A stretch of DNA of 53,640 nucleotides, filler included, from Jimgerdemannia flammicorona (lineage: Eukaryota), in NCBI GenBank assembly GCA_003990765.1. It is 2 parts of 2 records of this genome, joined end to end, with 100 filler letters (N's around TTAATTAATTAA, not from the genome) between each part and the next. Parts side by side here need not be neighbours in the genome. Positions count along the whole stretch, not along the records: positions 1 to 26,770 come from RBNJ01000696.1; 1 more part is not named here. The stretch is one strand, 5' to 3'. The first letter of the stretch is position 1. The number at the start of each line of letters is the position of its first letter. This document shows, one piece after another, positions 1 to 42,447 of this stretch. The notes below the pieces were generated by a model. The model was not told the DNA's origin, searched no databases, and was given only the letters and a program-made list of their open reading frames with translations. Position numbers and translations under genes: made by a program.

Positions 1-706
1 ACCGAACTCCTTGCACTACACCCAGCAAGTCAAGATGAAGAAGGTCTTATTGAAGCCTTCTTTACTCTTCTCAACAAGAGTTTTGTCAGCTCCACAAATC
101 CGAGCGACCTAGGACAACCAGCAGCAGTCTTTTTAGCCTTAGTTCCTCATGAAGTCCAAGCCTCTGTAGCCAAGTGGCTCAACTCTACCGACTTTCACCG
201 CACCAGGACCAAGACCGCATTATACATACTACTGATTCCAGAACAGCAAGGCCCGCCATATCCTTAAAGAAGAAGCAAGAGAAACCCTTCACCAACTACC
301 TGACCCTGAACCTGAAGCAGGCTCTGCTACAACTCTACCTGAATCTGAAACCAATACTGAACCTGAACTTGACTTTGAATTAAGTCCATCTGAAATCAGA
401 TATACAACTGATTCTGTCTACTTTGATGCCGAGCAAACCCAATTACACGGGGACTAAACTGAAGAAGAGGAGGAGTATCTCACTGAATTTGATCCCAGAT
501 ATACCACCGAAGGAGACACATATCCATCAGGACAGAATATACCTACACAGCAACAAACAGCTATCTATCAAGCCCTCACTCCAGATCCACAACTACTACT
601 CCAGCAACTTACACAGACCCAAAGAACCCCATCACACTCTGCACCAGTACCTCAAGTAGTACCAGTAACACCACTATCAGCAGTCCAACCGCCTCCAGTA
701 AACAAC

Positions 707-3142
707 ATGGCGAACCAACAGATTCTAGATCTCACAGCCCAAGTAGCTATAATGGCAGCAACTATTACTGCCTTAGCTGAACAGACCCGACCTACCAAAA
801 ATCTGAGCCTACCTACCTTCAATGGTACTGCACAAGAAGTCCAAAGCTTCATTAGTGTAGTTGACACCAACTTTGAAGCCAATCAATGAACCAATGAATG
901 AGTTACTGACCGCGTTCTGACAAACAATCAAGACCACACCCTGGAACAACTCTTTGCTACAACTACAGCCTATGTCCGCCGAGTTGTTATATTCTTCCGA
1001 GGACCTGCTGAAGAATGGTGGTGAACCCTTCCTGAAAAACCCCTCACATGGGATACTTGACCTGCAGTGATTGCTCAGAATACAGCAAATAATGCCCCAG
1101 GATATGGAGCCCATCCTGCAGCCCCTGGACTGAAACAACTCATGATTGCTCAATATCACAGCGAAACCATGATTGCCGAATCTCAAGTAAAACTCCGCAA
1201 CCTCAAATTTGATGTACATGGCAAGGAAGAATTCGAAACCTTCTGTACAAAACTTGAGTCACTCCTGAACACTATTGGCCTAGGATATATCGCCAACGAT
1301 GAAGCACGAAATGGTACAAGAGCAGACCATTTATTTGATGCACTGCCTGAATGGCTTACTAGAAAAATCCAAGAACAAGGCCGCCCAGTTGGTTGCGATC
1401 ACCAACAATGGTGCCTGGCAAGAATCAAGACCATGGTCAAGCGAATCCTAACAGCTGGACCAATTCTGCCCCGAAGGCAATTCAACAACAAGGAAAAGAC
1501 TTGGACCAAGAAAGAAGAACCCAAGCATGAAGCATCTCAAGCTCCCTCCACATCCACCTCTTGGACACTCAGAAATCCTGAACCCACCCAGCCAAGTACC
1601 TTCAAGAAACTTACTGAAGGTAAAAGGAATGAACTTCAAAGAAGCGGAGCATACTTCTATTGCCGAAAGACAGGACATATGGCCAGTGCCTGCCCCAACC
1701 GAAAACCCCGAACAGCAATACGAGCAATTGTTACCACTCTGCACCACCTCAACAACCTGACCACCAGAACACTAGACTTTGTCAAGTTAAGACAAACTGC
1801 TAAGGCCCCAACCAAAGGAAGTCAAAAAGCAGCCGGATATGACCTGTATGTAGCCGAAGAAGCTATGGTCTCCAACCGAGAAGTCAAACAAGTCTACACA
1901 GGAATCAGTATCCAAATCCCCGAAGGACATGTTGGAAGAATATGCTGTCACAGCAGCCTAGCATTGAAAGGACTCTCAGTAGAAGGAGGAGTCATTGACG
2001 AAGATTATATAGGCGAAATCATTGTTCTCATCCGAAATCACAGTTGGACACTCTTCAAGATCCCTATTGGCTTCTGCATTGCCCAGATCCTATTCGAAAA
2101 AATCGAGTCAACCCTGACAGTCAAGGAAGTCTCTGAACTACTACCCACCATCTGAGGATCCAAAGGATTTGGCTCATCAAACAAGGCCCCAGCCCAACCT
2201 ACTGTGAGCAAAGAAGAACAATTCTATAAGAAGATCGAAGATGGATATGTACCAAGTGGCCGATGCCCTCATGGTATTGGAATGTACTCTTCCCGAATGA
2301 TTGATGATTGCTTCTCTTGTATCAATGAACTGGCTCAAAGAAGAACCAACAGAAGAAAGGCTCCTACAACTGAAATCACCACTATTGGATCAGACAAACT
2401 GCTCACTCTTAAGGCTTTTGTCAATGGAGCACCTGTCAAGATTATGATAGACAGTGGTGTCTCAGGCAACTTTATCAATAAAGAGACAGCTAACAGACTC
2501 AAAGTCTTCACCTCCCCAGTACAGCAAACTCAAGCAGTTGCTACAGCTGATGGAACCTCACATGTTATTAGCAAAGAAGTCCGCAATCTACCCTTCCGAA
2601 TTGGTGACTACCGAGTACATGTTACTCTTCAAATTATACCACTTCCCGACAATGAAATCATCCTTGGGACTCCATGGTTAAAGCAAGAGAACCCCATGAT
2701 CGATTGGGTAAACCATTCGCTGACCATCAAGAAAGGACGCCACAACTTCAAACTATAAGGCAAAAAGAACCCACTCAATTCTAGTGACCCTGGACCAAAG
2801 ATCACCTATATCAACAAGTTACAACTCAAGAAATTGGCCAAGAAATGTCCTCTCTTCGCCATCTCCATCTGACCATCCAAAGGAGAACCCAAGAACTCTG
2901 TAGAAGACTTTTCCAAAGTTGACAGCCACGTCAGACCACTACTCCAGAAGGTCCGAGACATATTTCCAAACCGAACCACAGAACCACCTGCACCTGTCAT
3001 TATTAATGACCAAGAAGAATACAAAGTTGAACAAATCCTCAACAAATATAGCCACAAGAACCATCCAAATGGTACAACAACACCAGAATAAATTAGAAGG
3101 CCCCGACGAGGACGTCGAAAGCTAAGAAGGGGAGAGTTGTAA
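707..3142 (+). pseudogene. Gag-Zn knuckle-dUTPase-CPH motif-aspartic protease-partial chromodomain polyprotein, broken by C>T stops
   Basis: ORFs 707, 1067 and 2204 share one frame. Motifs: PTFNG...FFRGPAEEWW (gag), (Y)FYCRKTGHMASAC (knuckle), AAGYDL / HSSLA / GVIDEDYIGEI / IAQI / (R)GSKGFGSS (dUTPase motifs 1-5), IMIDSGVSGNFI and IILGTPWL (protease), EEYKVEQILNK (chromodomain start). Confidence 0.9.
3124..3136 (+). other. Polypurine tract of family A element
   Basis: AAGAAGGGGAGAG, separated by one base from the LTR start TGTAAG. Equivalent tract at 44153-44165 on the minus strand. Confidence 0.85.
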
Positions 3143-4633
3143 GCATACAACCTCCAAGCCACCAAAATCGCATGGTATCCTCAGAACTAATTTGGAAACC
3201 ACATGCGAGACTACAAAACAAGTTACTGAAGAGATCATCTGGTTACACAAATATGCCAGCAAGCATGAGAACCCACTGCCAAGATACAAGAATACTAGAA
3301 GAAGTACTACAACCATAAGACTGACTCTGAACCGCTATAGCTAGTTTGGTGTACCGTACTATTACAAAAGAAACTGAAAGTACCAAACTCAAATCAAGAC
3401 AAGAAGAACCCTATCTCACCCATCAAAAGGTTCACAAACTGTACTTATCAACTCAAGACCAAGATATACCGTGACTATACAAGACCTCATTATTTAGCAG
3501 AAGCAAAACGCATTTGAACAACTCTGTTCACTTTATCTGTGTCACCTCTGTTGGAGAGTGACGGACACTTCATCTGAACTCAAGAAAGCCGACAACGTCG
3601 AAACCAATCTCAAGCCATCCATGTGACAGATATTACTACTAGAAATTGCCTCAGATTATAGAAAATATCAATTCCGAGAGGTTCGAACCCCCAGCCGCGA
3701 CATTGGGAGCCCTCGCCCTAGACGAGAATGGCCAGTCCTCGCAAATGCGCCAGCAGACCAAAAAAAAAGAGAACCAAGACCTGTTATCCTTGTACAACCA
3801 CTACCACTAAGGACAGCCTTAATCTTACAAGAAATAGACGTGATGACATCTTGAAAACTGATGATGTCAGAAAAACTGCTCAGACTTTGCCAGTGATGAT
3901 GTCATCAATAGTGATGTCATCAAGGACTACCCAGATAGTGCCTAAACCTATAAATAGTCTAGCAGTCATAGTATAGATAGATTAGCCTTGTACGACATGA
4001 CTGTGAACTGACTCAGCAGTCAGACGATCTCTTGATATGTCAGATCACACTTGTACTATGTGACTGCATTCCGACTCAGCAAAGCACTTAGTGCTATATC
4101 CATATCTAGCCTAGTCCAGATAGCCCCTCACTAGTATAAATACCCCCTCCCCCAGACCTCAGAATCTCAGACAAAAACAGACTTGAACAATCCGAACACA
4201 ACTCCTGAGCACTTCCCCACAATATCCCTTCACACAAATACTCCTAGTATAGTAATATCATGAATAGCAAATAAATCTATTCCATAACCCACAAACCACT
4301 CTTAAGTAAATCTGCTCTCTGTTAGGTCCCACTCCTAACCCCATCACGAAATTTCCTAATTGGGTATTGTCTGCAGCGATATGCCAATTCAACTAAGCTG
4401 GTCTTAGTTTCTTGAACTTCCTGAAATACAGAAAATCCTGAACATCCAGAACTAGTCTGAAAAAGGACTTTGGTTGAGACATCAACCCGATCTTGAAATC
4501 AATAAGCATAGAGGATGTACTCCATACGAAATTGATCTTGACCATAAGAAAACGGTCTTTCAGAACATCCAGAATATCCAGAAAACCTTTCTAGAACTAT
4601 GTAACGGTTGCCCTAAAAAGTAACCCTCTTACA
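3138..4633 (+). repeat. 3' LTR of family A (about 1.5 kb)
   Basis: TGTAAG...CTTACA inverted ends. Homologous to 42649-44151 and 47545-48231 (minus strand). TATAAATA at 4135-4142. Confidence 0.9.
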
Positions 4634-6097
4634 CAACGCCTCTGGAACGCTGAATTTCACCTGCTGGGTTCCCAGCATCGTCACGTCCTCCCCAGGCTTG
4701 TTCCTGGAAGCCGGGCTATACCTGATTAGAGGGGAAGGGGTGGGGGAGTTCTCCCAGCCATCATCCCAAATCTCCAAGGTGCCGTCAGCATATAGGTCTC
4801 TAATCTCCACCTCCTTAGCCTTTCCAGACCCTGCCCCTTCGTTCCCACTCCTCTCACCAGCCCAGACACTCGCTCCGGCCCCTTCTGTACCCGTCCTCAT
4901 ACTCGCATCCTTCTGATGACCACCCCCCAGCTTGGCCAGCAAATCCTTCTGCCTCTTCCGCCCTTGAGCCCTTTCCCACTGCACCTTGTCCACTTGAATC
5001 CTCTTTCCATCCACCACCTCCAGGAGCGTTGACTCCTCGAAAGTCTTCCAGGCCTTAGCTCGCCATTCTACAGCCCCATCCAGCTCCTCCAGCACTTCCA
5101 ATAAATCTTCCTCCTCTTCTTCACTTCCTTTCACCCATATCACCTTGCACAGGAAAGCCCCCCAGACCAATACCAAAGACCAGTCCCTCGTCTTCCCAGT
5201 AGCCTCCTTCCCAGCCAGCCAAATCCTTACATCTACATCTCCAGTCCTGAGTGCAGTCCCTTCCCAGACCCTAAATCCGATATCCACCACCTTGCCATAC
5301 TCTGCCATAACATCCTCCACTCTCTTCCTCATCTCCATCGCCATCACCATGGGTACTCCTTTCACCAGCAGTTGGACTACCCTTGGATCCCATTTCAAAT
5401 ACCTCGCCATCGGAACATACACCTCCCCAACCACCAACCCAACCTTCAGCGCCTCCTCCAGAGGTTCCACCTCCTCAAATCCCACCTCCACCCCCTCCAG
5501 TCCCTTCAGAAACTTCACCGAAGCCGCTCCTGCCACCTGCTTAGCGATAAGCCCCAACACCATTTTTGCCATTACTGCTAAGTCCCGGAAACACAGCATG
5601 ACTACAAATGCCGAGATCGACTTCTTGAGTAACGGAGCCACCGCCAGTCCCATTACACCATCCACCAGGTCCCCAGGCCTTGTGCCCTTCCCACTGCTCG
5701 GCTCACCATCAGCAGTCCCATCTAGATTTTTTTCCAGATCACCCATCACACCCCCATCAGCAGTCCCCACCCCAGCCACTACTCCCCCAGCTCCACTCCT
5801 ATGGCCCTCCAGAGAGGCACCTCCAAGCGGTTGCTGCCTGGAAGCTACCACCGGTACCTTCCCCCCTCTCAGCCAGCTCTCCAGTCCAGCTCCCTGTCGA
5901 CCCCCCTTCACCTTCTCCGCAAAGCTCACCCTGCCAGACCCTTGACCTCCAGCTCCACCCCCTCTTCTACTACAGCCCCCCGCCAGCAGGCCCCTCATAC
6001 TTCTCCCCAAGCTGGGGCCTCTCTCCACTTGCTGCCATTCAAATACTCCAGAGCCACCCTGCTCAGTATGCACCTCTGGATGCTCATTGGTCGCCAT
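4634..6097 (-). CDS. Probable non-LTR retrotransposon (LINE) ORF1-like protein, truncated at the 3' end by the family A insertion
   Basis: 494-aa ORF with SFAEKVKG, VEVGFE..E.LEEAL..GL, LLVKGVP, MAEYGKVVDIG and RTGDVDVRIWL, an RRM-like pattern typical of fungal LINE ORF1. Its last codons (CKRVTF*) are read from the LTR. Confidence 0.6.
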
Positions 6098-6828
6098 GAT
6101 ACTAGTAGCTTTTCTCCAGAAACTGTGTCGAAAGTGTTGCCAAAGAGTTGTGTAACCTGAATGTTACCGGAGAAAGGTCTCTGCTCTCTTCTTTTATTCT
6201 TTTCTTTGTTCTTTTTCTTTGTTCTTTTTCATTGTTCTTTCCTGCCACATCATGAGCAAACAAAACAGCAGCCCTTAATTTGTATATTAGTCCAGTTTAC
6301 TCATTTTTCACTCTGCAATGATTGTCAAAAGAGGGAGTATTCGAGATGGAAATGCACTCTCTGCTGACAATGTTAGATTCTTTCTCATATGGACAGTACA
6401 CAAGCTGCTCATCAAGAGCCAAAGGGGTGACAGCAATAGTGATGGTGATGGCGATGGCGGGGATGAGGGAGAATTCCGGCAACAACTCATGGTGGCCCTT
6501 TAGACCTTGGAATTCATAGACCTCATAGCTATGTACATGGCAGCCTTTTTGGAGCAGCCGATAGTAGATGTAGGTTGCTCACTCAGCCGCCACTTGTTTA
6601 CTTGTGTTTATTTAAACTTCCCCAGCATGACCCAATTCACCTCGTACTTTTCTTAGGGTCCACAGCTCTATAGCGAGATCTGCTGACTTTATTCGCAACA
6701 TCTGGTCAAGATGAAGAAAGGCTGGTGAATGTTGTGGGGCATACCTTTGGTGGCTGAGCTGTTGAGTCAATGCATCACATGGCAGAGGTCTCAAAAGGAA
6801 CAGAAGCAAGCCTTTGTGAGCAATCTTG

Positions 6829-7170
6829 TGCAACTCATGCAACTCGTCAGCATGCAACTTGTCAGCATACAACTCGTCAGTATGCAGCTCACTCACTCAC
6901 TCACTCATGCTCTTTTTCTGAAATACCCATCTCCATATTTTATTTAATTTCATTTTTATGTGGTCTCCCCCTAAAAAACACCCACACCCGCACACAACCC
7001 ACCTGCACACAATCCGCCCACATACAACCCACCCACACACAACCTGCCCGCACACAACCTGCCTGTATGCAACCCGCCTGCAACCTGCCCATACACAACC
7101 CACCCACATGTAACCTACCCACACGCAACCTGCCTGCATACAACCCATCTGCATACAACCTATCTGCATA
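6829..7170. repeat. Two 15-bp minisatellites (ATGCAACTCGTCAGC-like x~4; ACACAACCCGCCCGC-like x~12), probably intronic
   Basis: Visible degenerate tandem units between a GTGAGC donor (about 6816) and a CCCTCAG acceptor (7188). Confidence 0.7.
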
Positions 7171-7188
7171 CTTATCTCGGTCCCTCAG

Positions 7189-8420
7189 ATCAGAGCTCAG
7201 TTCCATTGGAAAGGAGAGTTCAAAGTTACCTAAGTTCAACCATGTCCGGCATCTGATCAAATAGAGAAATTCAAGGGCAAGATATTCAGCATGAGTAGTA
7301 CCAGTATCATCATCAAGGCTTGGGGGTCTACATTCGAATCAGAGCCAATCATACTCGACCAAGGGGTCCATTGGCCAGTAGGAGTAACCAACAATGAAAA
7401 GAACCATATCTTTATTAACAAATGTAGAGAGGTAGTTACAATGGTGGTAAGGAACCTCTATGGTGATAAGCTTCGCCGCCACATCAATGAGATTTGCAAG
7501 GATTGTGTCAAATACCAGGTGGCAGGAAAGAGGGGGTGAAAAAAGCAAGGAGGGGGGGTTTGGACGGAAATTGGATATACTGTAACACTGGTGAAGAGTG
7601 GGTTCTGGAGTTCCGAAATCCCCTGCACTTATCTCCCTTTTTTTTTAACCCCTTCTCAGATAAATCACACTCTTCACCAATATACTCTTTTTGATACAAT
7701 TCTAGAGATGCACAAGATTCTATACCCCTACTGGAACTTTAGAAGTACCATTAAAGAGCAAACTGCATGTGAGCACGATACAGCCTGTGCAGCGATGGCA
7801 GCTATGATCTGGGGTTCTTTGAGCAGATTGGTAGAGCATATGGCAGGCCAGCTTGATGGTGATCTTGGTGCAGCTGTACATATATTCTTGGTGCAATTTA
7901 GTATACCGTATGAGGTGAGGAGCTCTGCTTTTTCAGAGTGCTGCAGTCTGGGGGATTTCTGCCCCCCTGTATGCAAAAAGGACTGACTGGTTGCCATCCA
8001 TTTTGGCAGGTTTCCAAGCCGGGGCTCCCAAGGCTGGACCAAGGGCAGGTGTCCACCAGCATAGCCTGGCAGTATGAGGTCCTGGGCCAAGGGTTCACCC
8101 AACTGTACACTTATGTCATATCAGGATATATCAGGCACAACCTTTTTCTGCCCACACACACAGATAACAATATCACTCTGGTAATGTTTTATGTTCCAGA
8201 AAGGAAGGGCCCAACCTGGGAGAACAGTGGCAGAATCTGGTATGATCTCACCTATGGTTTCAGGGTCCCATTTGCAGCCAACATGGCCATCCTATTCCAA
8301 CTACACAACCACCATGGCACCATCGCCTTTGAGGAGAGCTTGGATACAACAGTCATTGCACTTACAATAGATGATAGGCTCATCAAGGCCTGGGACCGGT
8401 GGGTGGAGCAGTTTTTGTGA
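7189..8420 (+). pseudogene. TET/JBP-like Fe(II)-dependent dioxygenase, spliced and probably disrupted (upstream exons may extend to about 6300)
   Basis: Last exon 8010-8420 follows a phase-0 GT-AG intron (7915-8009, branch-like GACTGAC). It encodes HNLFLPTHTD (HxD at 8157-8165), a hydrophobic strand, G.I..L.YGFRVPF..NMAILF and HHGT (His at 8313), matching the TET/JBP double-stranded beta-helix layout. There is a stop and a frameshift in the upstream exon. Confidence 0.6.
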
Positions 8421-9261
8421 GGGTTAGGCAATCTTTCATGAGGGTTAGGCAGCCATTTTGTACAGATTGGGCAGCCATTTTGTGCAGGTTGGGCAGTCTT
8501 ATGTAGGCTGGGCGCCTCTTATGTAATACTAGCTTAGCTGTTATGCAGGGCCCTACTAGCCCCTCAGCCCTGCTCTGTAGTGCTGCTGGTGCAGTACTGC
8601 AGCGTAGGGCCGAGGTGCCCATGGGATCCGAACTGGTGACTTCAACCACCAGAAACACCCTCCAACTGCCAGAAGCACCCTTCGCCCCAGACTCCTTAGC
8701 AGCTTGGGGCTGCCCCTATGCCACTGGTGGAGGGCTGCAAATTTTGCACACTCCCTCTACCTACCCTGCCTGTCTCAAATACTTGCGGCTTGGGGCTGCC
8801 CCTTGCTGCTGGTAGAGGGCTACAAATTTTGCACACTCTCTCTGCTGACTCCATGCCCGCCAACCCGCCAACTGACCCCACCCACTGACCTGGGTGCTGA
8901 CAGCTTGGAGCTGCCCCTTGCTACTGGCAGAGGGCTGCAAATTTTGCATGCTCCCTCTACCTACCCCTCCAACCTGGACACTTGTGGCTTGGGGCTGCTC
9001 CTTGCTACCAGCAGAGAGTTGCAAATTTTGTGCACTCCCTCTGCTGACCCACCGACCTACCCACTGACCTGGGCACTGGCAGCTTGGGACTGCCCCTTGC
9101 TGCTGGCTGAGGGCTGCAAATATTGTACACTCCCTCTGCCACCACTACCAACCCCACCCCACTTGGGCCGCAAACTCCAGGCCAAGTCCTTAGGTTTTTT
9201 TTTCCTTTTTTATTATTTTGAAAGGTATTAATTTGAAAGGTATTAATTTGAAAGGTATTAA
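8420..9261. repeat. Tandem repeat cluster between the convergent TET-like and hAT genes
   Basis: Units of about 20 bp (GGGTTAGGCAGCCATTTTGT-like) at 8420-8524; about five units of 70-110 bp with the core GCTTGGGGCTGCCCCTTGCT...GAGGGCTGCAAATTTTGCACACTCCCTCT at 8699-9140; TTTGAAAGGTATTAA x3 at 9217-9261. Confidence 0.8.
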
Positions 9262-9324
9262 ATATTCCACAAGGCCAACCAACTTATCCACAGACCCGCT
9301 GAATTTTAGCGACCCAAGCCCCAC

Positions 9325-10385
9325 CAAGACTTCAGACATATATATACCCAGATTGTCTCAGCATTCAGCGCACACCTCTTTGGGGCAATGAGGTCCACCC
9401 CACCTGAGAACACCTACTCGATGGGAGTGCTGGAGGTAGGAATTGCCAGGTAGTTCTGAGCCATACCACACAGGCTGAGAAAGTCTGTTTGATGCAGCTG
9501 CATACCCTGGTGGGTAGAGCAGTGGTTAGATTGGTGGGTTAAATTGGCCCAACGCCCACCTGACAATACCCACCTGATAACTCACCTTCCACCAGTTGAG
9601 CACCTCTGTACCCTCCAGCAGGATCACGTGGTCACTGGTAAGGTAAATGGTGAGTTCATCTATTGATGGTAGCCCTTCCACTGATGGCTCCCTCTTCTTC
9701 TTTCTGCTGAAGTAAATGTAGAACAGGAGGGAACTCTCAGCATATTTGTCTGAACTTCAGCCAGAACCTTATAGTGGTGCATAGTTTTTCCGGTATACTT
9801 CGATTACGGCCTGCTTGGTTCTCTCAATAAAGTGCTACTCCCAGCCCTGATCTTTATGATATTGTAGCTTTAAGCATGGATCCAGCACTGTTTGAAGAAA
9901 AGGAGAGTGAGTTTTTGCAGAGTTTCCTCTATTTTGGAAGGGGCAATGGCCACATGCCAACATTGACACACCTGTACTGATTGAGTATACAGTGGTATCT
10001 GTTTGGGAGTAGTATTTCCTGAGCTTGCTTAGAGCAACTTCCATGGTGTCTCTCTGATCCGGGTTTAACCGTAAATCACCACAACCCTCCAGCCTATCCT
10101 CGAGCTTGTCCTCTAGCTGGTCAATCAGAAGGTTATATACTGATATCACAGAGCTTATTGTCAGGGTCATTTGTTTGACTATATCCTTCGTACAATTGTT
10201 GAAACACTGGCAGTTATATATGGTGAGATGTTGCATTGTATGGAGGCAGACAAAATGAGTGTGGAGCCAGAGCAACCATCACTTACTTCCAAAACTCTGA
10301 CAATATTCCTAAGTATGTCCCACTCGCTTTCACCTAGAGCCTTGGCCCATATTTCCTTGTTGGCAGCCATCATTGGATCTATTGG

Positions 10386-10417
<32 letters not shown>

Positions 10418-11850
10418 AAATCTTCTATCATCTGAAATAGTTGCTTTAGCTGACCGAAGAAAAAAAGGATACATACTACAGCAAACTCCAGCGTGTGCTG
10501 GATCATTGCAAATATTGAGTTCTAATGTGTACAGATATCCAATATAAGCTCTTTCAGGGCTAAACTAATTGCCCTATACTGTACAGTAAATTTGTCTTGT
10601 CATTGTAGGGATGATCGGACCAATACAACCAGTTTGTGCAGCTTGGAAATTATACTCAAGGCTCCTCCTCTCTCAGATGTTTTGTCTATATGCATAAGAT
10701 AGTCCTGAACAGTGAGGTTCAGTACATGGACCTGGTATCACACACGGCAGCTTTCTATACCGAAGGCCACATTTTCCTATTTGAGGCTGGCTGCTAAAGC
10801 TTGGAAAAATGTTGAGTTATTTGTAGCATTGTCTATCGTAATGGCCAAAATCTGTACTTGAAATATTTGGTTGGTGAATTATGCGAAAATAAATAACCAA
10901 CAAAATCTGTTCTGTTTAAGGACTTCTCTCAAAATACCGACCTGACAGCAAGCCCCCCTTTTTTTATCTTGGTTGTAATTCCAAGCTCTCGGATACAACT
11001 AATAAAAGCATCTGCGATGTTGTCTCTAGAATGAGGGCCAGCAAGTTTGACAAAGTCAAGGATAAGAGATTTAAGCTGCCAATTGAGGTCAATCTAATGA
11101 CCAGTAATGCCCAGAAACGAAATTGCATTGGGGGATGTCTATGTGTTGATCATAAACGAAATTTTGTCTGCCGAATTCTGCTTATTGAATATAAGGTTAA
11201 ATTGGTGAGCTCTTTTATATAATTCAGCTTGCAAAGGTTATGGTGCTACTCTTATTTTACCTGAAGTGTCTGGTGGAGATTGTCGTACTCCTTCCTATAG
11301 GCCTCCAGGACATCTTTATGAATAGTATCGGTACTTGACAAATATAAATCATACTTGAGGAGACCAAAGATGCTATGCAATTGATCACTCTCAATAGTTG
11401 TGAATGACTGGTCTGTACACACAATCTAGTAAATGAGCTGATTTCGAAATTCTGCCAAAGAGTATGGCTAAATATTTTTGATTAAACAGCATTATTGATA
11501 TAAAAATGGTTGGACAATCGGATAAATATACCCACTACAGCTTGGATGTCGATTTTATTTGTCTCTGTGTTCTTTTTGATTTTGTTAGAGTACTTGTCTT
11601 TTATGTGTTGATTCATGTTCGAGATTGTATCACCAAGCATTTTGAACTTCTGGCTAGTGCAGTTTATGGGGGTAGATGAAATAATATCATGTGTGTGTCA
11701 AACAAGTCAATAGGTGCATCTTAATTTTTTATCTGCAATAATTACAAACAACATCATCTCCTATCTTAGTACAATATTGCCAGATTTTGGAACAAGGATT
11801 GTGTAGAAGGTATGGAACTATCAGGGATGTTTGACTTGAAGTATCATTGG
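9325..11850 (-). pseudogene. hAT-superfamily transposase, decayed and intron-containing
   Basis: Minus-strand fragments: TSPNAISFLGITGH...LILDFVKLAGPHS; AITIDNATNN; HVLNLTVQD; degraded TRWNS region; KLRKYY...VLDP.LKL; VLNWWK; MAQNYLAIPTSSTPIE*VFSGG (hAT dimerisation domain). Boundaries are approximate. Confidence 0.88.
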
Positions 11851-11984
11851 TACTGTGAACTGTTGAAGACTGATCTGTCAACATGTGTGTTTGCATATTT
11901 ACGTGTGCATGTGTATGTGTGTATGTGTATTATATATGCATGTGTGTATAATGTATTGTGGACACATCTGGTATATGAGTCATG

Positions 11985-12323
11985 TGGAGGATTTGGATTG
12001 GAGAATTCGATTGAAGGATTTGGATGAGGATTCAGATTGGAGGATTCAAATTGGAGGATTCAAATTGGAGGATTCGAATTGAAGGATTTGAATTGAGTGA
12101 TTCGGATTAAGTGATTTGGATTGAGTGATTCAGATTGAGTGATTCGGATTGAGTGATTCGGATTGGGGTGGTTCAGATGGGTGATTCAGATGGGGCGATT
12201 TGGATGGGGCAATTCAGATTAATCTGAGTTGATTTGGATGGCTTCGGATTTGAAATTTAGATCAAACTATCATGTGATGAATCGAATCCAGATTTAATTC
12301 GAATTAACTCATTCAGAGCACTA
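11985..12323 (-). repeat. Putative hAT 5' terminus: subterminal GATTCGGATT/GATTCAAATT tandem repeats and TIR-like end TAGTGCTCTGAATG
   Basis: About 15-bp tandem units lie upstream of the transposase. They end at a TAG-starting terminus, where the sequence switches abruptly to AT-rich DNA. Confidence 0.55.
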
Positions 12324-13104
12324 CTATAGAGTAAAAGAGAAATATTTATAAAGAGTAAGTTGTTTATAGAAAGTATTTACTATTTAGTATTTATAGAGAA
12401 TATATATAGTAGTTTGCAAAAGAGAAATAAAATAAAATAAAATTCAAACATGTATTTTATACTTATAAATAATAAGTTTATATCTGCAAAATATAGCTCA
12501 AGTTTGCAGTATACTTCTATGAACATACTCTGAAGTTTATAGGTCTTCAATGAACTGAATATTTTTTATAATAAAGTTTATATTATTAAAAATAATTCAA
12601 GTTACAAAGTTTGTATTTATAAAATATAATTCAAGTTTGTAATATACTCTTATGAACAGATCTCTAGAGTTCACAGATTTTTAATAAATATATCTAGAAC
12701 TATTTTTTTTTTTTTTTATGATAAAAATTACTTAATTAGCTTAATAACTTACTAATTATTGAAAATTATTTATTTCAAAATAGCTTATTACTCATCTATT
12801 AGTTTAGAGTTACATCCTCCAGTACCAATATATGATCTTATTGGTATTCTATATTCTTTATAATGAATAATTATTTGATGCATATTTTGATATAAATAAT
12901 TTTAATTGTATATTTTGATGACCTTTTCCATGCTCCAAGCATTTCATGAGCAAGAAATTGATTGATATATCAACCTGACTTAGGATATGGATTAGAGGAG
13001 GGGGTTCAAGGAGATGTATTCTCAGCCAGAAGATAGATACAATGAGGTTAATTGAATAAGTATCATATTTATTTGGTTTCAAAATCATTGTAAGAGCTAT
13101 TATC

Positions 13105-13277
13105 TAACTTAGGACGTGGTGTTTTCGCGAGACTAATTCCAACCTAGGACGTGGCGACTTCTAACCTTGGTCGTGGCAATTTCATGTTGGGAGATTGTGT
13201 TGGAGATCGTGTCGCGAGATCGTGTCGTGAGATCGTATCGCGAGATCATGTATCGCGAGATCATGTCATGTTCGCGA
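13105..13277. repeat. CpG-rich short tandem repeats (AACCTAGGACGTGG-like x3; 13-bp GATCGTGTCGCGA x5)
   Basis: Seen directly. Marks the boundary between AT-rich decayed DNA and the gene island. Confidence 0.7.
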
Positions 13278-14743
13278 GCAGGACGTATTTATTCATATGT
13301 ATTTTAAAACTTTACTTTTTATTCAAAGGTATTCTATTTATTGATAAATTTCATCTAAACGAGGCAATATGACCTCAGTTTTGGAACCCCATAGTACTAG
13401 CCGGAAAATCTCGTGAAAGGTGTTCTAACGCTAACGTGGCTTACTGCGGATCGCACAAGCTCGCAAAATGCTTACCAAAATCAACGATAATGACAGTAAA
13501 GGCCGATTAAAGTTTTCATATTTGGTTGGTATCTTTGAGCCATATCCTCTCGTTTTTACAAGGCAGCGAGTTTTGATCGAAGGCAATGAGAGATTTACAT
13601 TAAATAATCGATGTGCTTGCGGGCCTGGTTTGATCTGAGCTTTATCTGTCCATGTCAATTTAAAGCTTTGTGCCTGGCTTTTAGGCACGAACCGACCGAC
13701 GCCACCAATGCGAAGGTTGAATGCTAACTCTGTTAACTTTAATGGCAACTATGCACGACCGGGGATAGAATGTTCCATTTTTACCAGTTGCAAATCTCAC
13801 CTGATGTAGCTAATTTTGTTTCGTAAAACCCTAGATAACAAATATTGGGTGTCATCGACCAATCTGCCGTTGAGCTATAGGCGCGTGTGGGACGATCTAC
13901 AGTCATGTGATTCCGCGGCATCTTACATGGTTGGCTCATGTCCAGATATCGCTGTAGATAAACACCCTCAAATTGCACATTGGGATCACGTCAAAAATAA
14001 AAATAAAAATAAAATAATTACACCAGTGTAGCTGGACGCTCTACAGCCCTGTTTTTGGGAGGAGGGATCGGCGCGTTGAGAGTGTGGTAGCGCATCAACG
14101 GTCCCATTAAAAGCAGGTATCGTAAGCTCTAATGAGAACGCCAGCCATCCAACGACCACAGTTCGCCAGCATTACTAGCGTCACCAATACCATCATTGAC
14201 ACTTTCTGGAGACCCCCCCCAACTAGCCCAGCCGCGGTGGTCATTTACTAGATGGAGTAGGCGCTAAGCACTGCTCTCTAATCCAAACCGCCCGATAACG
14301 AAGGAAGAGTTTGGCACGCCCTGCGCTCTTGACCCTTTTCTGTCATTTTGCCAAATCGAACCTCTCAAGTTCGTGATATTTTTGCTCAATATATATTTTG
14401 GTCAAGGCCTCATTGTATTCAGTCTGTCTCAGATCGGCAGCTTCATGCATATGCATTAATATTAATTGAATGCCCTAGTATCACCATGAACAGGAAATAA
14501 ATTTCAGGTAAGTAATAAACTTGGCTACCACACCTTTTACCGAGGTTGAGCAAAAATCTCGACAGCGGAAAACCTGGCGCACACAGGAATATTCCTCTAC
14601 TGCTCTGACATTCGAGAGAATCCAATTTGCCAGCGTACTCTAATCAAGATCGACATCAATTTTACAAAAAAAACAAAAAAAAAAAAAAAAAAAAAAAAAA
14701 AACCAACCCAACTATGACAAACAAAATCATGCAACTCTGACCA

Positions 14744-17700
14744 TTACTTCCTCTCCTTGATGTTAAACGACTCCAACAGCTTAATCCACTCCCTCTCCCC
14801 CTTCGGCCCGAAATATCTAGGCTCATCAAACACGTGATAGAAATGCGTCCTCATCCCAGGTGACTTAAAGAACGCAGGGTACCTCAACCCAACAGGGATG
14901 TTCCACTCGTCAATGCGATCGTATACATTGACTCCCCAATACGCCTTTGGATCGTCCACGACCTGGAACTTCGCCGTTTGTATCTCCGTATCCGAAATCC
15001 CGCCATGACTGACCCTCGCATATGCCACGCGCTTAACCCCCCTGAATCCAACATACTGGCACCACCGATCCCAATCCTCTGCATCGACATCATTGATGCC
15101 TCCCTCTTCAAAAAGAATATTATATATACTCCCTCGTGGCTCGGTAACGACGTACCCAAGGAATACGAAGGGGTTCGTGCTCTCCCTAACGATACTCGCG
15201 ATGGTTTGGGTTTGTAGCTTTCGGTCGAGCTCGTCCTCCTCCTGGCCGTTGTGAGAAACGATGAAGTCGACGGACTGGCCGTAGACGTCGAGGGTGGCGT
15301 GGATGGCGCAGGCGAGCTCGCCAACGGGTGAAGGAAGAAGGTGGTGTGTCGAACGCAAGATCGGAAACTTGGAAAGAAGCAGGCATCCCCATGTGTGTTT
15401 CATTGTTGCGGGGCCGAAGTCGACGTAGTAGCCGAGGTCCTCGGCAATGTATTGAGCCCAGTCTCGATTGCCCATTATGATGCGTTGCGTGTCGGATTCG
15501 AGAAGACCTGGGGTTTGAGTTTAAGGGGGAGTTTCAGTTAGAGAAGCGCAAAGGAAGAAACGAATCTCAATAAAATAATCAGCACACATAATTTCCCTCT
15601 TCCCACCAAAAAATAAAATAAAATACACCTACCCACGACATCCAACTCTAAATCCCTAATAACATCCTTCATCCTCCTCTCGCTCGCCCACATATCATTA
15701 TCCAGCGCAAAATGTATGGTCCAAATCCCCGCCGTAAACGCTTTAAACTCCGGATGTGCTGGCTGTGGCGTCTTCGCATTCCTAACCCTCCATGCCGCAA
15801 CAACTGTTGCCGCCATAACCACTACTATAGCGGTCATACGTGCATACCTCCTCGTGGTTCTAATAACACTATATTGCTCCTTCACTCCACCAGCATTCTC
15901 CGCCGTCCTCGCATTCCACACGCCACCAATCACGAGCGCCATAATGGTCGCAAGCAGCCAATTTGTCCTTTCGCGGGCATACACGCCACCAGGTACGAAC
16001 GCATACGCTACGACCCACACATGGGCGAGGCACAGCACGTTGTACGTCATGGTAGCGAGGAAGAGCGTCCTTCCTGGCGGATATGGCACAACAGCGCGGA
16101 CGAGCGAGGGGACGAGTGAGACGAGGTAGGCGGCAAGGACGAGGGCCGCGCTGTAACCCTTCCACGCCGGGAGAGCGTAGAATGCGGCGCAGCTCGCGAT
16201 GCCTAGGGCCGACCAAGCGGGTGAGAGGACGAGGGCGCGGTTGGCGGAGAGGAAGAGGCCCAGTGCGAGGACGGCGATGGTCACCACGCCCCAGGGAACG
16301 GGCTCCGGGCCTGGGTTCGGGTAGCCGTCGACAACCCAGCGCATGACGGTCGAAGAGTCGGTGTACATTGAGTGCAGAGCAAAGAGGAGAGAACCTAGAC
16401 CCGTGGCGGCGAGTGGCCAGGAGCCGGTTGGGATTTTGGGCGTTGGTGAGTCCGCAGCGGTGGGTTGGCCGCGCATCATAACGTCGAGACAAGCGAGCAG
16501 GCCCATTACAAGACCCTCGATATTCTTTCCACCGTTCCCGCGGTACATGATAGGCCATATAGGGTTCTCTGTGAACCAAGCCATCTTGACGACGTTATGG
16601 ACTAACAATCCCAGGATCCATACGAGGGCCCCCCTTTCTAGCGCACCGGTACGGTCACGATCGCCGACCCATGTTGCTGTCCACGTGAGGATGCTGATAG
16701 AGACGCCGGCGGCGGTGACGGCGAGACGCGGAGCGGGATCGACAATGAGATAGGATGCGATGCCAGCGAGGGAGAGGAGATGGAAGAGACCACGATGGGC
16801 GTTGATAGTTGTGCGGATGAAGCGCGAGCTGAGGAGGACGGGTGAGACCGTGACGAGGAGGAAGGCTTCGTAGCCCGAGATGCCCATGTGCCAGAGTGGG
16901 AAATACCAGATTAGGAGGGTCAAGGAGGTCAGCATAGACCAGAAGACGAAAGCTGAGGGACGAGGGTAGAATTGTTAGTGAAATCGGTGTGGGCCTATCG
17001 TACGATGATCCCGTATGGTGCATGCATGCCACACGATTACCAGATACAAAATCACCAAAAGACGTACCGAGATACACATCCGCAACGAATGACCTCACTT
17101 CACCAAACACGCGCCACGGGCGCGATGGCGGTGCCACCTGCGCCGCTATAGGCTCGCTGCCGGTTGGATAATAATAATTGTCAATAGCAGGATCAGAGAA
17201 AGTCGTCCTCAACGGGAATGCGAACGCCACACCTCATGCCTCTGCTCACCTGACCCCAGCATCAGGCGCCAGTCTAACCACCACCCGTATGAGTTTGACA
17301 ATGCGTTCACGCGACGTAAAAAATGAAGATCATACGTAATGAATGGGCATTAGTATTTATTTTCGCGATCCATTCACGCTAAACATCCATCCCATCCAAC
17401 GGCTGAGTTTTCATCCTCGCGATCGTAGACGAGTTTCTCTCCAACAGTAACTCCAACCAACCCTATCTCCAAACAAGCCCTATCACATCATCTTCCCGAT
17501 ATGCTCCTCGCCATACCGGTCCAATCCTGCACTTGCCCCGCTCCCCCGGCCGGCGGCGGCGCCAGCGGAGCCGTCGACGACGGTGATGCTGAGGTTGCTG
17601 AACTCGAGAGCGGCGACGGCGTCGAAGGCCACGTCGTAGAGGATCAACTGCCACTCGAAGAAGGCGTAGTTTGTGTAGGCTGCGTGTGGTGAAAGTGACA

Positions 17701-18808
17701 GATTGGGTTGAAATTGCGGGTCTCGCCTACCCGTAAAACATAATCACATGACGACAATAATAATGATAATAAACACGTACCCCCAGAGACCCTATGGACC
17801 TTATGCTGCACGAAAAAATACACCATCGGTACGAGCATCAGAAAGAATGCCCCGCACAGATACCGCCTATACTTGAGTCCCTTCGATCCCTGCACGGTGC
17901 GCGGGTTCGTGGCGAGGACGCCGAACATCCATGGGATTGTGAGGACGAGGTATGATATCATGGCGATGTCGTGGACATTGTGGTCGTCCGACGATGTGAT
18001 GTATACCCAGCCGCCGCAGGACACAGTGCGGGCCAGGCCGACCCAGAGCAGGATTTGTGAGAAGAAGCGAGAGGCAGTTGGGCGCGAGGGGAGAGTGATT
18101 AGGAGGTACCAGAGATAGACCAAGGCGAAGCGTGGGCCTATGGGGAAAAGGGGGACGAAAGGTGAGTTTGGACTGGGGAATGGAAGGAGGAATTTAGGTG
18201 GCCATGTACCTGAGGTCAGAGCGATGAAAATGTGGAAGATGGCGCGGGCGGGGTACCAGTCCCCCGTAGTGGCGCTCACACTGGGAAACCATTCCTGGGA
18301 GGGTATGGGTTAGAGTAATGGATAAATGAACGGCAAATGTATTATGCGAGTCATCACTTCTAACTCGATAACGCATTCCATAACCAAACGGCCCGCATAC
18401 CTCTGGGTATCCATAGTATTCGTTCCGTACGATCTTATGATAATGGGTATAACAACCGACGATGAGCGCAAAGAAGAAGGCGCCTGGGAAGAAGGTAGTC
18501 CAAATGTAAATTTATCTTGTCGCCACGTGGCATGCAAGAGAAAAAAATTTTGAGCTCAATATTCCGATTAATCAAAAGATACTCACAGTACGCAAAGGTG
18601 GTATGCGAGTATGATATGTAGGTCGCGGGTATCTACACAAAATTCATGAACCGAACGGACCAACCGAGTCGCGACATCCCGAATGTCAGAAGTGGAAGCA
18701 AAGACGCGTTCCCTTGTAACTCGGGTCGGATAGGGGGCAGCATACCTTTGCCAGGACGGCGCCGCGGGGGGCGGGTGGGTTGTGTTGGTCCGTCTTATCC
18801 GAGGCCAT
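14744..18808 (-). CDS. CWH43: CWH43 / PGAP2-interacting GPI lipid-remodelling protein, about 989 aa, 9 exons: 18808-18746, 18632-18587, 18483-18401, 18294-18210, 18137-17781, 17679-17517, 17156-17068, 16952-15633, 15507-14744
   Basis: GT-AG introns with consistent phases join [35 protein letters not shown] (Frag1/PGAP2 domain), FVFWSMLTSL, WYFPLWHMGISGYE, AGIWTIHFALDNDMWASE, GLLESDTQRIIMGNRD, HTWGC, HNGQEED, DRWCQY and SDTEIQ (endo/exonuclease-phosphatase-like C-terminus). Confidence 0.95.
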
Positions 18809-18915
18809 TGCGGCAGCAGGGGCGATGTTCCTGATTCCTGTCGAAGAAACGCAAGTCCAATTCCCCCGTTCCCGTGCATTAGTAGAATTTCTGTCTGACC
18901 GTTTTGGGGTGCATC

Positions 18916-19022
18916 CTATCACGTGATAGATGTGCCTGTGTCACCCTCGGCTAAATCCACCACATCACCCTCGGCTAAATGCACCCACATCACGTCATGA
19001 AGGCCACATCACGTCATGAAGG
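18916..19022. promoter_or_regulatory. Candidate CWH43 promoter elements
   Basis: Perfect 14-bp palindrome CTATCACGTGATAG (E-box core), plus TCACCCTCGGCTAAAT x2 and CCACATCACGTCATGAAGG x2 (CRE-like), 110-210 bp upstream of the ATG. Confidence 0.4.
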
Positions 19023-19719
19023 GAGACGCCCACTTGCCCCACGCTTTTCGGGGGGCATCCTGTTTGGCCAGCCTCATCCTCACCTACAGGTTTTACATGT
19101 TTTATTATTGGTAGTATGAAGTACATATACGGCCCCGCGGCAAGACCCGTGGCTCGTGCGGCCGTCGGCCATAACAATCCTAATACCGTAAATTGAGTAC
19201 CATTAAGCATGTGTACACCAAGTATGCACCCTTGCACAAGTTTCTTGGTGCCAAGACGAGCAGTACGAACCAAAAATACCGCAATTGGAAGGGAGCAGGG
19301 ATTTATTTATACACAACTTCCGGAATAGCAGGAAGTTTCTTATTACAACTCACAACACCCCAAACCGGGCAACACCGAAGCCTTTCAAAGTAAGTCTATC
19401 GAGACTTTCATCACTCAGAACGGCAGGAGGGCGAAACAAAGAGTCTATAAACTTTTTTGCCGCAATTAAACATACGAACGAGGTGCCAAGAATCATGTAC
19501 ACGAGAATGTTTGCTACGCCCAATATGTGGGGTGGTGAGGGCGGGCAGGCTATTAGGTAGGAAAGGGCGAATAAAAAATAAGGGACGCGGGGATCTAAAA
19601 GAAAAAAAAGAAAGAAAGAAAGAAAGAAAAAGAAAAAGAACAAGGGGGTTTTCATTAAGGGCGGGAGGGGGCTACCTACCCACCCAAGCACATTTTCATC
19701 TTCACCACGCGCTACGCAT

Positions 19720-20829
19720 CTACTTTCTAGGTGTAACACCAACATGCCAGAACCTCCTGTGTTGATTCGACTTGCTCGGCTCTTCCGTGTGCACGCACGA
19801 CACCCTCTTATGCTTCTCGACGCTCCTAACTACGCCCTCGACACCTTTCCCTTCTGCGGAGCACCCAACCATAACCAACGAATCGCACGCCCTCAGCAGC
19901 ATCCACAGTCCCTCAACCTTAACCTCGCTCGCAAAGATAGCTCTGATCCGTGGGCACTGCTTAGCAATCAACTTAGCGAGCGCGGCATCCAGAATGTCGT
20001 ACGGGTTCAAGTACAGCACGACAAGCTCGGCGCCGTAGTTTGGCAAGATCACGTTCTGCAGCGCGAGTGGATGATGCGCATACCCCGTAACGTGTGTCAC
20101 GACGGTGTTATCGGGCGTGCGCTTCCTTCCGCCCCGAACAAAGGGCAGGAAGTTCAGTTGTTCGTCTGTGTCGTTTGGGAATGTGAGCAGCGACCCGCAG
20201 CAAGGAAGAGGGCAATCAACATATTTCCCCTCGCGGAAGCAGTCCATGCGAGGGAGAGAAGCCGGTCGTGGGTACTTTGTTCCCGCCCTACCCAAGGCGG
20301 CTTGCTGTGCGGCGTCGGTCTGGGTGAGGAGGAAAGTGGCATCCCTTGTGTTGTCAAGGAGGATCTTGACCTGAGTTTCTGAGAGGTCTGTCATTGTCTG
20401 CAGGAAAGCGACGTTCGGGCAGAGACGGAGCAGATCGAGAAAGAAGCGGTTCGACCAGTGGAAGAGCGGGGAGGAGGTGTGTGGGAGCTTGATGGTTTTA
20501 AGGGAGCGGCCGTATTTCGCGCAGAAGGCTAGGACGTCTTCTGGGGTTATAGCGTGGTCCGGGAATATGACCTTTGTATAGCAGCGCTGGGAGACAATAC
20601 GGTAGCAAGTGCGGTTGACGAGGAGAAGAGATTGCAGGTCTTCGAGAGCTGTGACATGGCTGATGATGTCGACCAGGAGCTCGGTCGGGATGAAGTAGTG
20701 GGAAGTCGACATTGCGGGCGCGGAATCTGGATAGACGGTAGAGGGGCGACGCTTCTGCATCACATAGTGGGTCTTGGGAACACTTGTCAGTGTGCCCATC
20801 ATGGAGGCGCCGCTGAGATCCAGGATCAT
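19720..20829 (-). CDS. F-box protein with degenerate LRR-like repeats, 369 aa
   Basis: IPTELLVDIISHVTALEDLQSLLLVNRTCYRIV is an F-box pattern. LLRLCPNV, IAKQCPRIR and LLRACDSL resemble cysteine-containing LRRs. The ORF is intact and CpG-rich. Confidence 0.8.
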   Translation of the reverse strand: MILDLSGASMMGTLTSVPKTHYVMQKRRPSTVYPDSAPAMSTSHYFIPTELLVDIISHVTALEDLQSLLLVNRTCYRIVSQRCYTKVIFPDHAITPEDVLAFCAKYGRSLKTIKLPHTSSPLFHWSNRFFLDLLRLCPNVAFLQTMTDLSETQVKILLDNTRDATFLLTQTDAAQQAALGRAGTKYPRPASLPRMDCFREGKYVDCPLPCCGSLLTFPNDTDEQLNFLPFVRGGRKRTPDNTVVTHVTGYAHHPLALQNVILPNYGAELVVLYLNPYDILDAALAKLIAKQCPRIRAIFASEVKVEGLWMLLRACDSLVMVGCSAEGKGVEGVVRSVEKHKRVSCVHTEEPSKSNQHRRFWHVGVTPRK

Positions 20830-21880
20830 GATGGTAGATTAAAAGGAAAGTGTGAGGTGGGCGGGAAGGAAGGGGAGAAGGGGGGAGGTGAGGGTAGGAA
20901 AAGGAGTGGATGGGCAGAAGGGAAGGTGAAGGATAAGGGGAAAGAGAATAAACTTTCTATCTAGTATATACTGCGAGCCATCTCCCACTGTCGAAAGGAA
21001 ATGTTTACGCAAAAGGCTAATTGCTAAATGTACGTGACTGTTTTTCTTAAACACTCCACCACTAAGCTCCCTTCTGGCTCGTGTATTGCACGCAGCTTCC
21101 AGAAGGCGGAGCGGAGAGAAAGACCGGCGCTGGGAAACGAAACGAACCCCATTCTATGGATCTATGGGCATAGATCGCCCAAATGGCAATCGCCCAATCG
21201 TCCAACCGGCGAATTTCAGTGCTCTGAGATCTGCACCTTCTTTCTCCCTGCTATCCTATATATCCTCAGAACCGCACATTTCCTACAAATAATTAGTATG
21301 CAATAGTCCCGTGTCCTTATCCGCTTGCGTATTTAAAGTGTCACACTGAATCTTTCATTGGCACGAAAGATTGATGATTAGTCAGTTATGACATCACAGC
21401 TCCCACACGATGGTCCGTGGCTAGGCTCACCGACCGAATTCGGAGATCGCAACAGTCAGAGCCAGCGACGATGAAGAACAGGGCCGTCGAGAGGAGGGAA
21501 CATGGCGAAAACCTCGTGTCGCATGCGAGGATGTGGGGGAGTGGATCCATTTTAGCGGTGAGACTATGTGCGGATAGCGACTAAGAGCCAAGACTTGGTC
21601 CCGTAAGTTTTGTCTGGTATCGCACTTTGAGATACTCTATGAATTAGTGACCTTTTGCTTTGTTTTCCACACATGCCATCATCGAATGCAGAGTGCCATC
21701 CATCACGTCGGAGACTGGCTCGCGACCAACGCACCAACGCCACATTTCCCGAGGGCGCTCAAGCACTGTGTCCTCTTTCTATTATTGTTTATTATTATCG
21801 ACTGGAGCCAAGCCCATTAATGGCCAATACGCATGTAATTTTACCTTGTAGTTATTGATGGAGTTCCTTCTTTCTCTTTG

Positions 21881-21881
<1 letters not shown>

Positions 21882-21976
<95 letters not shown>
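21882..21976. repeat. Poly(T) homopolymer, about 95 nt
   Basis: Seen directly. Confidence 0.95.
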
Positions 21977-41631: not shown

Positions 41632-42447
41632 ATACTATAATAAAACTATATATTAATAGAATTAAATATTATGTATAATTAAGATAACTATCAGCTCTAA
41701 GTTCTGAGTTCTTATGAAAAAGTACTAGATTTTAATTATCTATTGCAATAGTATAGTACAAATATCACTTTTGGATTTTTATACTAGTAGAGATATCATA
41801 CTTGTATCACAAGTTAATCAGATTCAGAATTGTTAATAAGTCAGATCTGAGGGTTCTTTGATAAAAATTCTGCTTTATTCTTATATTTAGAGAAAACAGA
41901 GCTGAGATTATAATATACTCAATATAGAGGATATTTATACAGATTCAAAGCTATAATTAAATATAGTATATTAGATATATTTATATATAGTTATATTATA
42001 TATAGTATTTATAACTACTCATTGTAAATTCTAGTAGCTTGCTGATATATAATGAACTATTATATCTTTCTCTTCTTTATTAGAACCTACTCATTAAGAT
42101 CAATACTAAATTCTAGATACTTATTAAACTAGAGAACTATATACTAAACTACTTGAAAGATAATATATATCACTCTAGTATTCATTAGTCAGATTGATAA
42201 TATTCTCAGAAGATACTTTATAAAGATAATTAAGGACTTAGAGTCAAGTATAAAAAATAACATATCTCTTAGTTTATTGATATCTATAGGTAAATTTATA
42301 TACTATGTGATTTATATGATAGAATCAATCTCATTAGATAGAATTTGATGATATAATCATTATAAAATGATAAAACAAAATAACCTACTGTCAGTGCTAC
42401 TTGCTATCTGCTATATTTCACATACTGCTCAGTATATTTCTTACTAC
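41632..42447. repeat. Very AT/TpA-rich decayed repeat, probably the continuation of the sequence interrupted by family B copy 1
   Basis: Linked to 32951 by the CTAT TSD and similar in composition to 32500-32950. Confidence 0.5.

Follow-up and report, generated by a model that had tools for sequence, protein, structure and literature searches.

Gene content of the locus

We analysed a 53,640-nt stretch of DNA from Jimgerdemannia flammicorona (the window; all coordinates count along its whole length), which contains a decayed hAT transposase gene on the minus strand (9309-11929) and, tail to tail with it, a spliced gene on the plus strand (7291-8420) that resembles TET/JBP-type dioxygenase genes. 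The two stop codons are 886 bp apart, in line with the distance of about 0.9 kb given in a first-pass annotation, which had been made from the sequence alone and had suggested that the plus-strand gene is cargo of a large hAT element. Both genes lie in a repeat block that fills the left 12 kb of the window and in which CpG depletion is unbroken, with observed/expected (o/e) ratios of 0.10-0.66 in each 500-bp bin over 1-12000. The ratio is 0.10-0.20 over 7501-10000, compared with 0.83-1.45 over 13001-20000, so that the plus-strand gene is indeed as CpG-poor as the transposable elements. From about 13000 onward, the window contains host genes with ratios near 1.

A decayed hAT transposase and its right terminus

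The C-terminal dimerisation domain of hAT transposases (PF05699, Dimer_Tnp_hAT) was identified on the minus strand at 9309-9581, and the stop codon is at 9306-9308. With the TAG at 9414-9416 read as X, the match has an E value of 4.8e-8 and a score of 33.1 bits, compared with a cutoff of 21.4; without read-through, the E value is 0.07. A frame map places the decayed transposase at 9309-11929, in blocks that are distributed over three frames and interrupted by several stops, and the read-through consists of four stretches with 9 stops (X) in all. Blocks within 9309-11929 (minus strand) that we take, by eye, to resemble a BED finger and the DDE core were also seen. Upstream of the dimerisation domain, 13 pieces or read-through stretches gave no Pfam match for an RNase-H-like DDE core, and a homolog search with the hAT core (147 aa), which was a weak search, found none. 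The Atlas leads for the transposase were hAT-like_RNase-H and ZBED1. The hAT transposase is real, but dead.

The right terminus was located at 12308-12323 (minus strand; TAGTGCTCTGAATGAG read inward). Its terminal 16-mer occurs only once in the window, and it is preceded by 14-bp subterminal repeats at 11985-12220, found as arrays with Tandem Repeats Finder, and by 15 copies of a 9-base motif at 11990-12231, all in one orientation. Immediately to the right of 12323, the CpG o/e ratio climbs from <0.5 to about 1. In addition, the cover by contigs of a soil-metagenome run (X1, see below) is still about 200 at 6300 and has fallen to 22.5 by the last bin, the one containing the terminus; these values are summed contig depths, which do not equal copy numbers. 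The unique terminal word, the subterminal motifs, the CpG step, and the drop in cover support a right end of the hAT element at 12323, as had been annotated.

A three-exon gene on the plus strand

Direct reading of the sequence gave a model of three exons with about 308 codons. Exon 1 (7291-7597) starts with the ATG at 7291 and aligns to the N-terminal halves of two homologs described below, the protein P0003 and the metagenome locus L001. Intron 1 (7598-7705, GTGGGT...TAG, phase 1) lies in the codon just preceding a conserved Met-His, and exon 2 (7706-7914) aligns to residues of about 168-227 of P0003. Intron 2 (7915-8009, GTGAGG...CAG, phase 0) is located one codon past a conserved Tyr. Exon 3 (8010-8420) encodes the putative metal-binding core and ends with a TGA stop. 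The end at 8420, the HTD (HxD) motif at 8157-8165, and the distal His of an HG(T/S) motif at 8313-8315, 52 residues past the first His, agree exactly with the annotated coordinates. Position 7706 is a true acceptor, that of exon 2, and not the start of the gene, which lies about 400 bp further left.

The first-pass annotation had also mentioned stops in this gene, and one in-frame TGA is present in exon 1 (7537-7539), at a position where P0003, P0006, and L001 have Lys in a conserved RG-K-R stretch. Because this TGA sits within the stretch that aligns to the homologs, the copy is a pseudogene.

Two tandem repeats accompany the gene. About 120 bp upstream of the ATG lies an array with periods of 15/30/45 bp and about 12 copies of CACCTGCACACAACC-like units (6985-7168), 155 bp of which are missing from one metagenome contig. 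A 22-bp tandem repeat (8448-8496) follows just 3′ of the gene.

A family of old, spliced genes

A phmmer search with the exon-3 peptide against 1.84 billion representatives gave five proteins at E<=1e-3, four of which are true relatives. P0001 is 79% identical to the peptide (E 2.5e-67), P0002 is 49% identical, and P0003 (374 aa) is 30% identical; P0004 also matched. The fifth, P0005, a bacterial protein with Ig repeats, was discarded as spurious. A subsequent profile search gave eight proteins, five of them new, for a total of nine relatives, and none of the eight carries a precomputed Pfam domain. With tblastn, residues 92-227 of P0003 align to 7375-7914 of the window and residues 238-364 to 8025-8402 (E 1e-18).

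A scan of metagenomes revealed two loci, L001 and L002, which span residues 28-367 of P0003. Introns 1 and 2 of L001 are identical in position and phase to those of the window gene, at a protein identity of only about 27-30%. The retention of both introns at this level of divergence is strong evidence, at the level of sequence comparison, that the plus-strand gene belongs to a real, old, spliced gene family. L001 has a G+C content of 34% and takes the family into an AT-rich soil fungus, which may be new. L001 and L002 stem from different metagenomes and are 99% identical across their whole 2717-bp overlap (1-2716 of L001, 156-2870 of L002), but the final exon of the TET-like gene contains a stop in L002 at a place where L001 is open. 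They were not accepted as evidence for multiple copies, because they may be one locus sampled twice. A scan of viral contigs gave 28 pattern matches and no relative of the family. The Atlas taxa of the nearest protein clusters lean weakly to Basidiomycota.

Copies of the locus in a soil metagenome

In the run X1, 1786 short contigs with identities of 80-99% matched the region, and all 30 bins of 6300-12400 were covered. By identity, 157 contigs are at 99% or higher, 433 at 95-99%, 812 at 90-95%, and 384 under 90%. The whole stretch is thus multi-copy in this metagenome, and the repeat extends to the left of 6300. The variant positions listed in both genes are represented by 9-19 contigs each, and 516 of the 533 differing places in the run table are transitions. 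The CpG o/e ratio over both dead genes is 0.1-0.4. The in-frame stops, the frame breaks, and the strong CpG loss in both genes indicate that this copy was methylated, mutated, and inactivated. In this copy, the TET-like gene and the transposase are pseudogenes.

Similarity to TET/JBP-type dioxygenases

The pattern HxD/E...H, the facial triad required for Fe(II), is present in the family with a spacing of 52 residues. Both His residues are invariant in an alignment of five sequences. In an alignment of ten sequences, the first His is found in 10/10, followed by Asp in seven and Asn in three, and the distal His is found in all eight sequences that reach this position.

Transposon-borne TET/JBP-like proteins of the PE type were defined by Kojima 2025 (PMC12730594), a study of which part of the text and of Table S1 was available. 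By eye and without a statistic, six blocks of the family match PE-type domains of that table in identical order. Block 1 is a strand of the form (E/S)(I/L)V..V.R(N/D), and block 2 has the form G..(S/T), with GYT in the family and G.SAGSRS in PE-type proteins. Block 3 is a helix, (A/S)..FA..(W/F)....R.L, and is followed by (L/I)(P/A)R(L/M)D..G as block 4 and by F.F...E.A........H.(D/E) as block 5. Block 6, GG.F(F/Y)...YG.(R/G)(I/V)....N(T/M)......HG(T/S), surrounds the second His and is followed by A(F/L)....R(L/V).

Several results weigh against a TET/JBP relationship. The annotation had named Tet_JBP (PF12851) as the profile to be checked, and neither this family nor 2OG-FeII_Oxy_6 (PF20515) nor any other 2-oxoglutarate (2OG) family matched any of 12 queries at E<=1 (four pieces of the window, one read-through piece, P0001-P0004, and three exons of L001). 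Searches with two profiles and with P0003 gave no match among PDB sequences at E<=10. AlphaFold2 models of P0003 from alignments of 10 and 16 rows had mean predicted local distance difference test (pLDDT) values of 37.3 and 40.2, and are too poor to be searched for the double-stranded beta-helix of TET2, NgTET1, CcTET or CMD1. In addition, TET/JBP dioxygenases hold the C1- and C5-carboxylates of 2OG with two conserved Arg residues. Of the R...R pair located past the distal His in PU- and PE-type proteins, the first member (R.G..Q in the PU type, QRG in the PE type, according to the available part of the study) is T, H or N in the family, as judged by eye. An Arg is located 20-21 residues past the distal His in the window copy, P0001, P0002, P0003, and P0006, and is absent from P0004 and L001, again by eye. 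In favour of the relationship, the clusters at Atlas ranks 4 and 5, both with a score of 0.90, contain PF20515 (72% of members) and PF12851 (11%); scores in this range are graded as leads only.

These results would be compatible with a real multi-copy gene that is something other than a TET/JBP-type dioxygenase, its HxD...H pattern and PE likeness being coincidental or belonging to another fold: the profile and PDB searches are blank, the fold models are unusable, the Atlas scores are leads, and no canonical Arg for anchoring 2OG can be recognised. However, blank sequence searches are expected, because the PE type itself is nearly invisible at this level: its HHpred match to CMD1 has an E value of 1.4, while its AlphaFold DB models match the structures of CMD1, NgTET, and CcTET at E<1e-5 (PMC12730594, section 3.2.3, as far as available). 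Coincidence would also have to produce six blocks in the same order, including the H.(D/E) block and the long motif around the second His, and we therefore regard this alternative as unlikely. The family is probably TET/JBP-like. The assignment in the first-pass annotation is partly supported, by the conserved HxD...H and the block order; no tool gave a statistical or structural link to TET/JBP or to a 2OG-Fe(II) fold.

One element or two

The left end of the hAT element was searched for in the whole window with the right-end 16-mer (<=3 mismatches), the 8-mer, the expected word of target site duplication (TSD) plus terminal inverted repeat (TIR), an inverted-repeat scan, and a subterminal-motif scan. 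None of these searches revealed a TIR partner, inverted subterminal repeats or a TSD, and the element has no second end in the window. Even with up to three mismatches allowed, no usably positioned partner exists for the 16-mer at 12308-12323, and the 8-mer is unique. The interval between the two genes contains neither any of the 15 copies of the subterminal motif, nor an inverted counterpart of them, nor a TIR, in agreement with the first-pass annotation.

Two matches to the 16-mer with three mismatches, at 29259-29274 (plus strand) and 42090-42105 (minus strand), were rejected as ends, being at chance level (three found versus 0.76 expected). They have left-end and right-end orientation, respectively, and flank, at a distance of 12.8 kb from each other, an AT-rich stretch and a long terminal repeat (LTR) element. 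A weak candidate for a left end is TAGTGCTG at 8578-8585 (plus strand), which matches the inverted right terminus at 7/8 positions. It was not accepted, because the similarity ends after seven bases and the flanks CTGCTCTG and CTATAGAG mismatch, so that there is no TSD (7/8-mers).

We estimate that the plus-strand gene has about an even chance of being cargo of the hAT element, and a number of observations count against it. Apart from the missing left end, no contig in X1 bridges both genes, the listed pieces all being <=224 bp. The word at 8578, if it were a TIR, would place the gene outside the element. The G+C content is 0.50-0.58 over 8001-9000 versus 0.35-0.40 over 10001-12000. In the available part of the published survey, hAT is absent among the carriers of PE-type genes, and in the three hAT7 families with a described layout the TET gene lies upstream and in the same orientation as the transposase, versus convergent here (PMC12730594).

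The same observations lend themselves to a different history, in which two unrelated transposon remnants adjoin: the left end of the hAT element would have been deleted or truncated, and the TET-like gene would stem from another DNA transposon, e.g. of a superfamily in which PE-type genes are already known; the transposase and the ends of that transposon would lie outside the window or would have been destroyed. Repeats of several kinds make up the block 1-12000, with an LTR retrotransposon to about 4633 and an unclassified stretch at 4613-6163. The step in G+C content separates the gene region from the hAT transposase, as does a distinct repeat array at 8699-9153, which consists of five copies of a unit of about 55 bp with a period of about 100-200 bp (67-86% identity in a self-BLAST); some metagenome contigs have unit-sized skips in it. 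The TIR-like 7-mer and the published range of PE-type carriers fit this history as well. In contrast, the hAT transposase is the only one recognisable in the 7 kb around the gene, the gene is not flanked by any kind of terminus that could be found, and the candidate at 8578 has only seven matching bases, no TSD, and a chance of about 5% of arising within a 900-bp interval. We consider two adjoining remnants a tentative alternative at somewhat less than even odds.

A single composite element is favoured by the lack of subterminal motifs, of inverted partners of them, and of a TIR between the genes, by the unbroken CpG depletion over 1-12000, and by the X1 contigs, which cover all bins and both genes and become fewer in the bin of the terminus. 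The published sizes fit as well. The TET-carrying hAT7 elements are about 8-13 kb long, judged from the cell lengths in the available part of Table S1 (PMC12730594). Together with the LTR retrotransposon that reaches to about 4633, these lengths make it reasonable to place the left end beyond or inside that insertion. The view that the gene is cargo of a large hAT element is plausible but unproven, as no left end was found in the window.

Comparison with known systems

The first-pass annotation did not regard the pairing of a TET/JBP gene with hAT as established, and this is outdated: TET/JBP genes within hAT (hAT7) and ten other lineages of DNA transposons were described in December 2025 (Kojima 2025, PMC12730594). 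According to the available part of that study, TET-carrying hAT7 elements comprise twenty families in six Puccinia species (rust fungi), and a literature search on hAT7 gave no other paper. They resemble the present locus in combining a hAT-superfamily transposase and a TET/JBP-type gene in one multi-kilobase fungal DNA transposon (a unity that is unproven here), and the role proposed for them is escape from methylation silencing. They differ in several respects. They carry a TET gene of the PU type, whereas the window gene is PE-like; they start with CAACGG or CAGCGA rather than with TAGTGC; and they make 7-bp TSDs. In the three described families, the TET gene is upstream and in the same orientation, whereas the window gene is downstream and convergent, and the window copy is dead.

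The PE-type proteins of Agaricus, Laccaria, Gymnopus, and Pezizales (Kojima 2025) are alike in block order over about 300 residues, by eye, and share with the window family the association with transposons and the invisibility to ordinary sequence searches. In contrast, the PE-type hallmark is HxE and the window family has HxD, and the first Arg of the PE-type tail QRG...R(L/V) is absent from it. The motifs PTHTD, HTDNN, LPRLD, and YGFR of the window family do not occur in the available part of Table S1 (PMC12730594).

CMD1, the vitamin C-using TET homolog of Chlamydomonas reinhardtii, has HxD...H with the same 52-residue spacing (His345/Asp347/His397) and, according to the available part of its description, has no functional basic residue to bind the C5-carboxylate of 2OG (PMC7854593). 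It is among the solved structures nearest to the PE type (Kojima 2025, PMC12730594, available part). CMD1 is a host gene and not transposon cargo, and the PDB searches detected no sequence similarity to the window family. The TET/JBP genes of the KDZ (Kyakuja-Dileera-Zisupton) and Plavaka transposons of Basidiomycota (AG type, CcTET) are likewise located on DNA transposons, yet with a transposase of another superfamily; the AG type is close to CcTET, whereas the window family has no detectable similarity to it.

The pairing of TET and hAT is thus already in print, and the locus is a modest extension, not a discovery. What may be new is a PE-like gene of the HxD type without the first post-His Arg and its possible link to a hAT element with TAGTGC ends. 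A more far-reaching version is improbable: the gene would represent an undescribed, HxD-bearing sister group of the PE type across distant fungal lineages, which has lost the 2OG-anchoring Arg, uses another co-substrate or makes another modification in the manner of CMD1, and was captured by hAT elements as anti-silencing cargo.

Other features of the window

To the left of the gene, long interspersed nuclear element (LINE) and LTR insertions had been annotated. The LTR retrotransposon was found and fills the window as far as about 4633, while no Pfam family was identified at 4613-6163. Matches of 135 bp with 88-89% identity connect 4500-4633 to 47545-47679 and 42649-42783 on the opposite strand; they are probably the common end of an LTR element family and delimit the left-hand retrotransposon on its right side, at about 4633. 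The pol regions of three LTR retrotransposons, at 1061-2758 (plus strand), 36657-38558 (plus strand), and 51631-53273 (minus strand), have a dUTPase domain beside the protease or the reverse transcriptase/RNase H (Pfam dUTPase, E 6e-29 to 2e-23).

The minus strand at 4613-6163 contains an open frame of 516 codons. It was rejected as a transposase, as it has no Pfam family and is overlapped by four long frames on the plus strand. The overlap points to a skewed composition, and the unclassified stretch is C-rich (G+C 0.52-0.59, GC skew -0.54) and CpG-poor; the frame is probably held open by composition.

Between the two genes, a 15-bp tandem repeat is located just past the transposase stop (9211-9261). 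Homopolymer runs of T or A were found at 21865-21976 (about 110 bases), at 14659-14711, and at 10387-10413, the last being a run of 27 T within the hAT transposase region. Among the host genes, a PGAP2IP/CWH43-like gene at 14744-16974 (minus strand) encodes transmembrane and nuclease-like domains of PGAP2IP (E 4e-100, 2e-65, and 2e-57). An open reading frame at 17644-18309 (minus strand) has a Frag1 domain. The two are probably one CWH43-like gene, and their CpG o/e ratio is about 1, unlike that of the repeat block.

Proposed explanation and implications

Our preferred explanation, to which we assign a probability of about 0.5 as a whole, is that the stretch would represent the right portion of a single, dead copy of a composite DNA transposon of the hAT family. 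The element would carry the transposase (9309-11929, minus strand) and the convergent gene (7291-8420, plus strand). The product of the latter would be an Fe(II)-dependent dioxygenase of DNA bases, TET/JBP-like and belonging to a sparsely sampled, PE-like type that has HxD. Judging from the literature, the enzyme of intact copies would oxidise methylated bases (5-methylcytosine, perhaps also N6-methyladenine) on the DNA of the element itself and would thereby counter silencing by methylation. The left end would be absent from the window, either lost or separated from the rest by the nested LTR retrotransposon, whose right border is near 4633. An action against methylation silencing, as suggested in the first-pass annotation, cannot hold for the window copy, because both of its genes are pseudogenes.

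The window copy is a fossil without a function of its own, and its value is that of a pointer to intact copies. In fungi, demethylase-like enzymes carried by transposons have recently come to be recognised as a counter-defence to methylation of the genome, and the present family extends to fungi outside those surveyed. P0001-P0010 and L001 form a set of sequences for asking whether such divergent enzymes still use 2-oxoglutarate. If the locus is confirmed, it would represent a third TET type for hAT elements; if the gene turns out to be unlinked, the family would at least be a new HxD clade beside the PE type.

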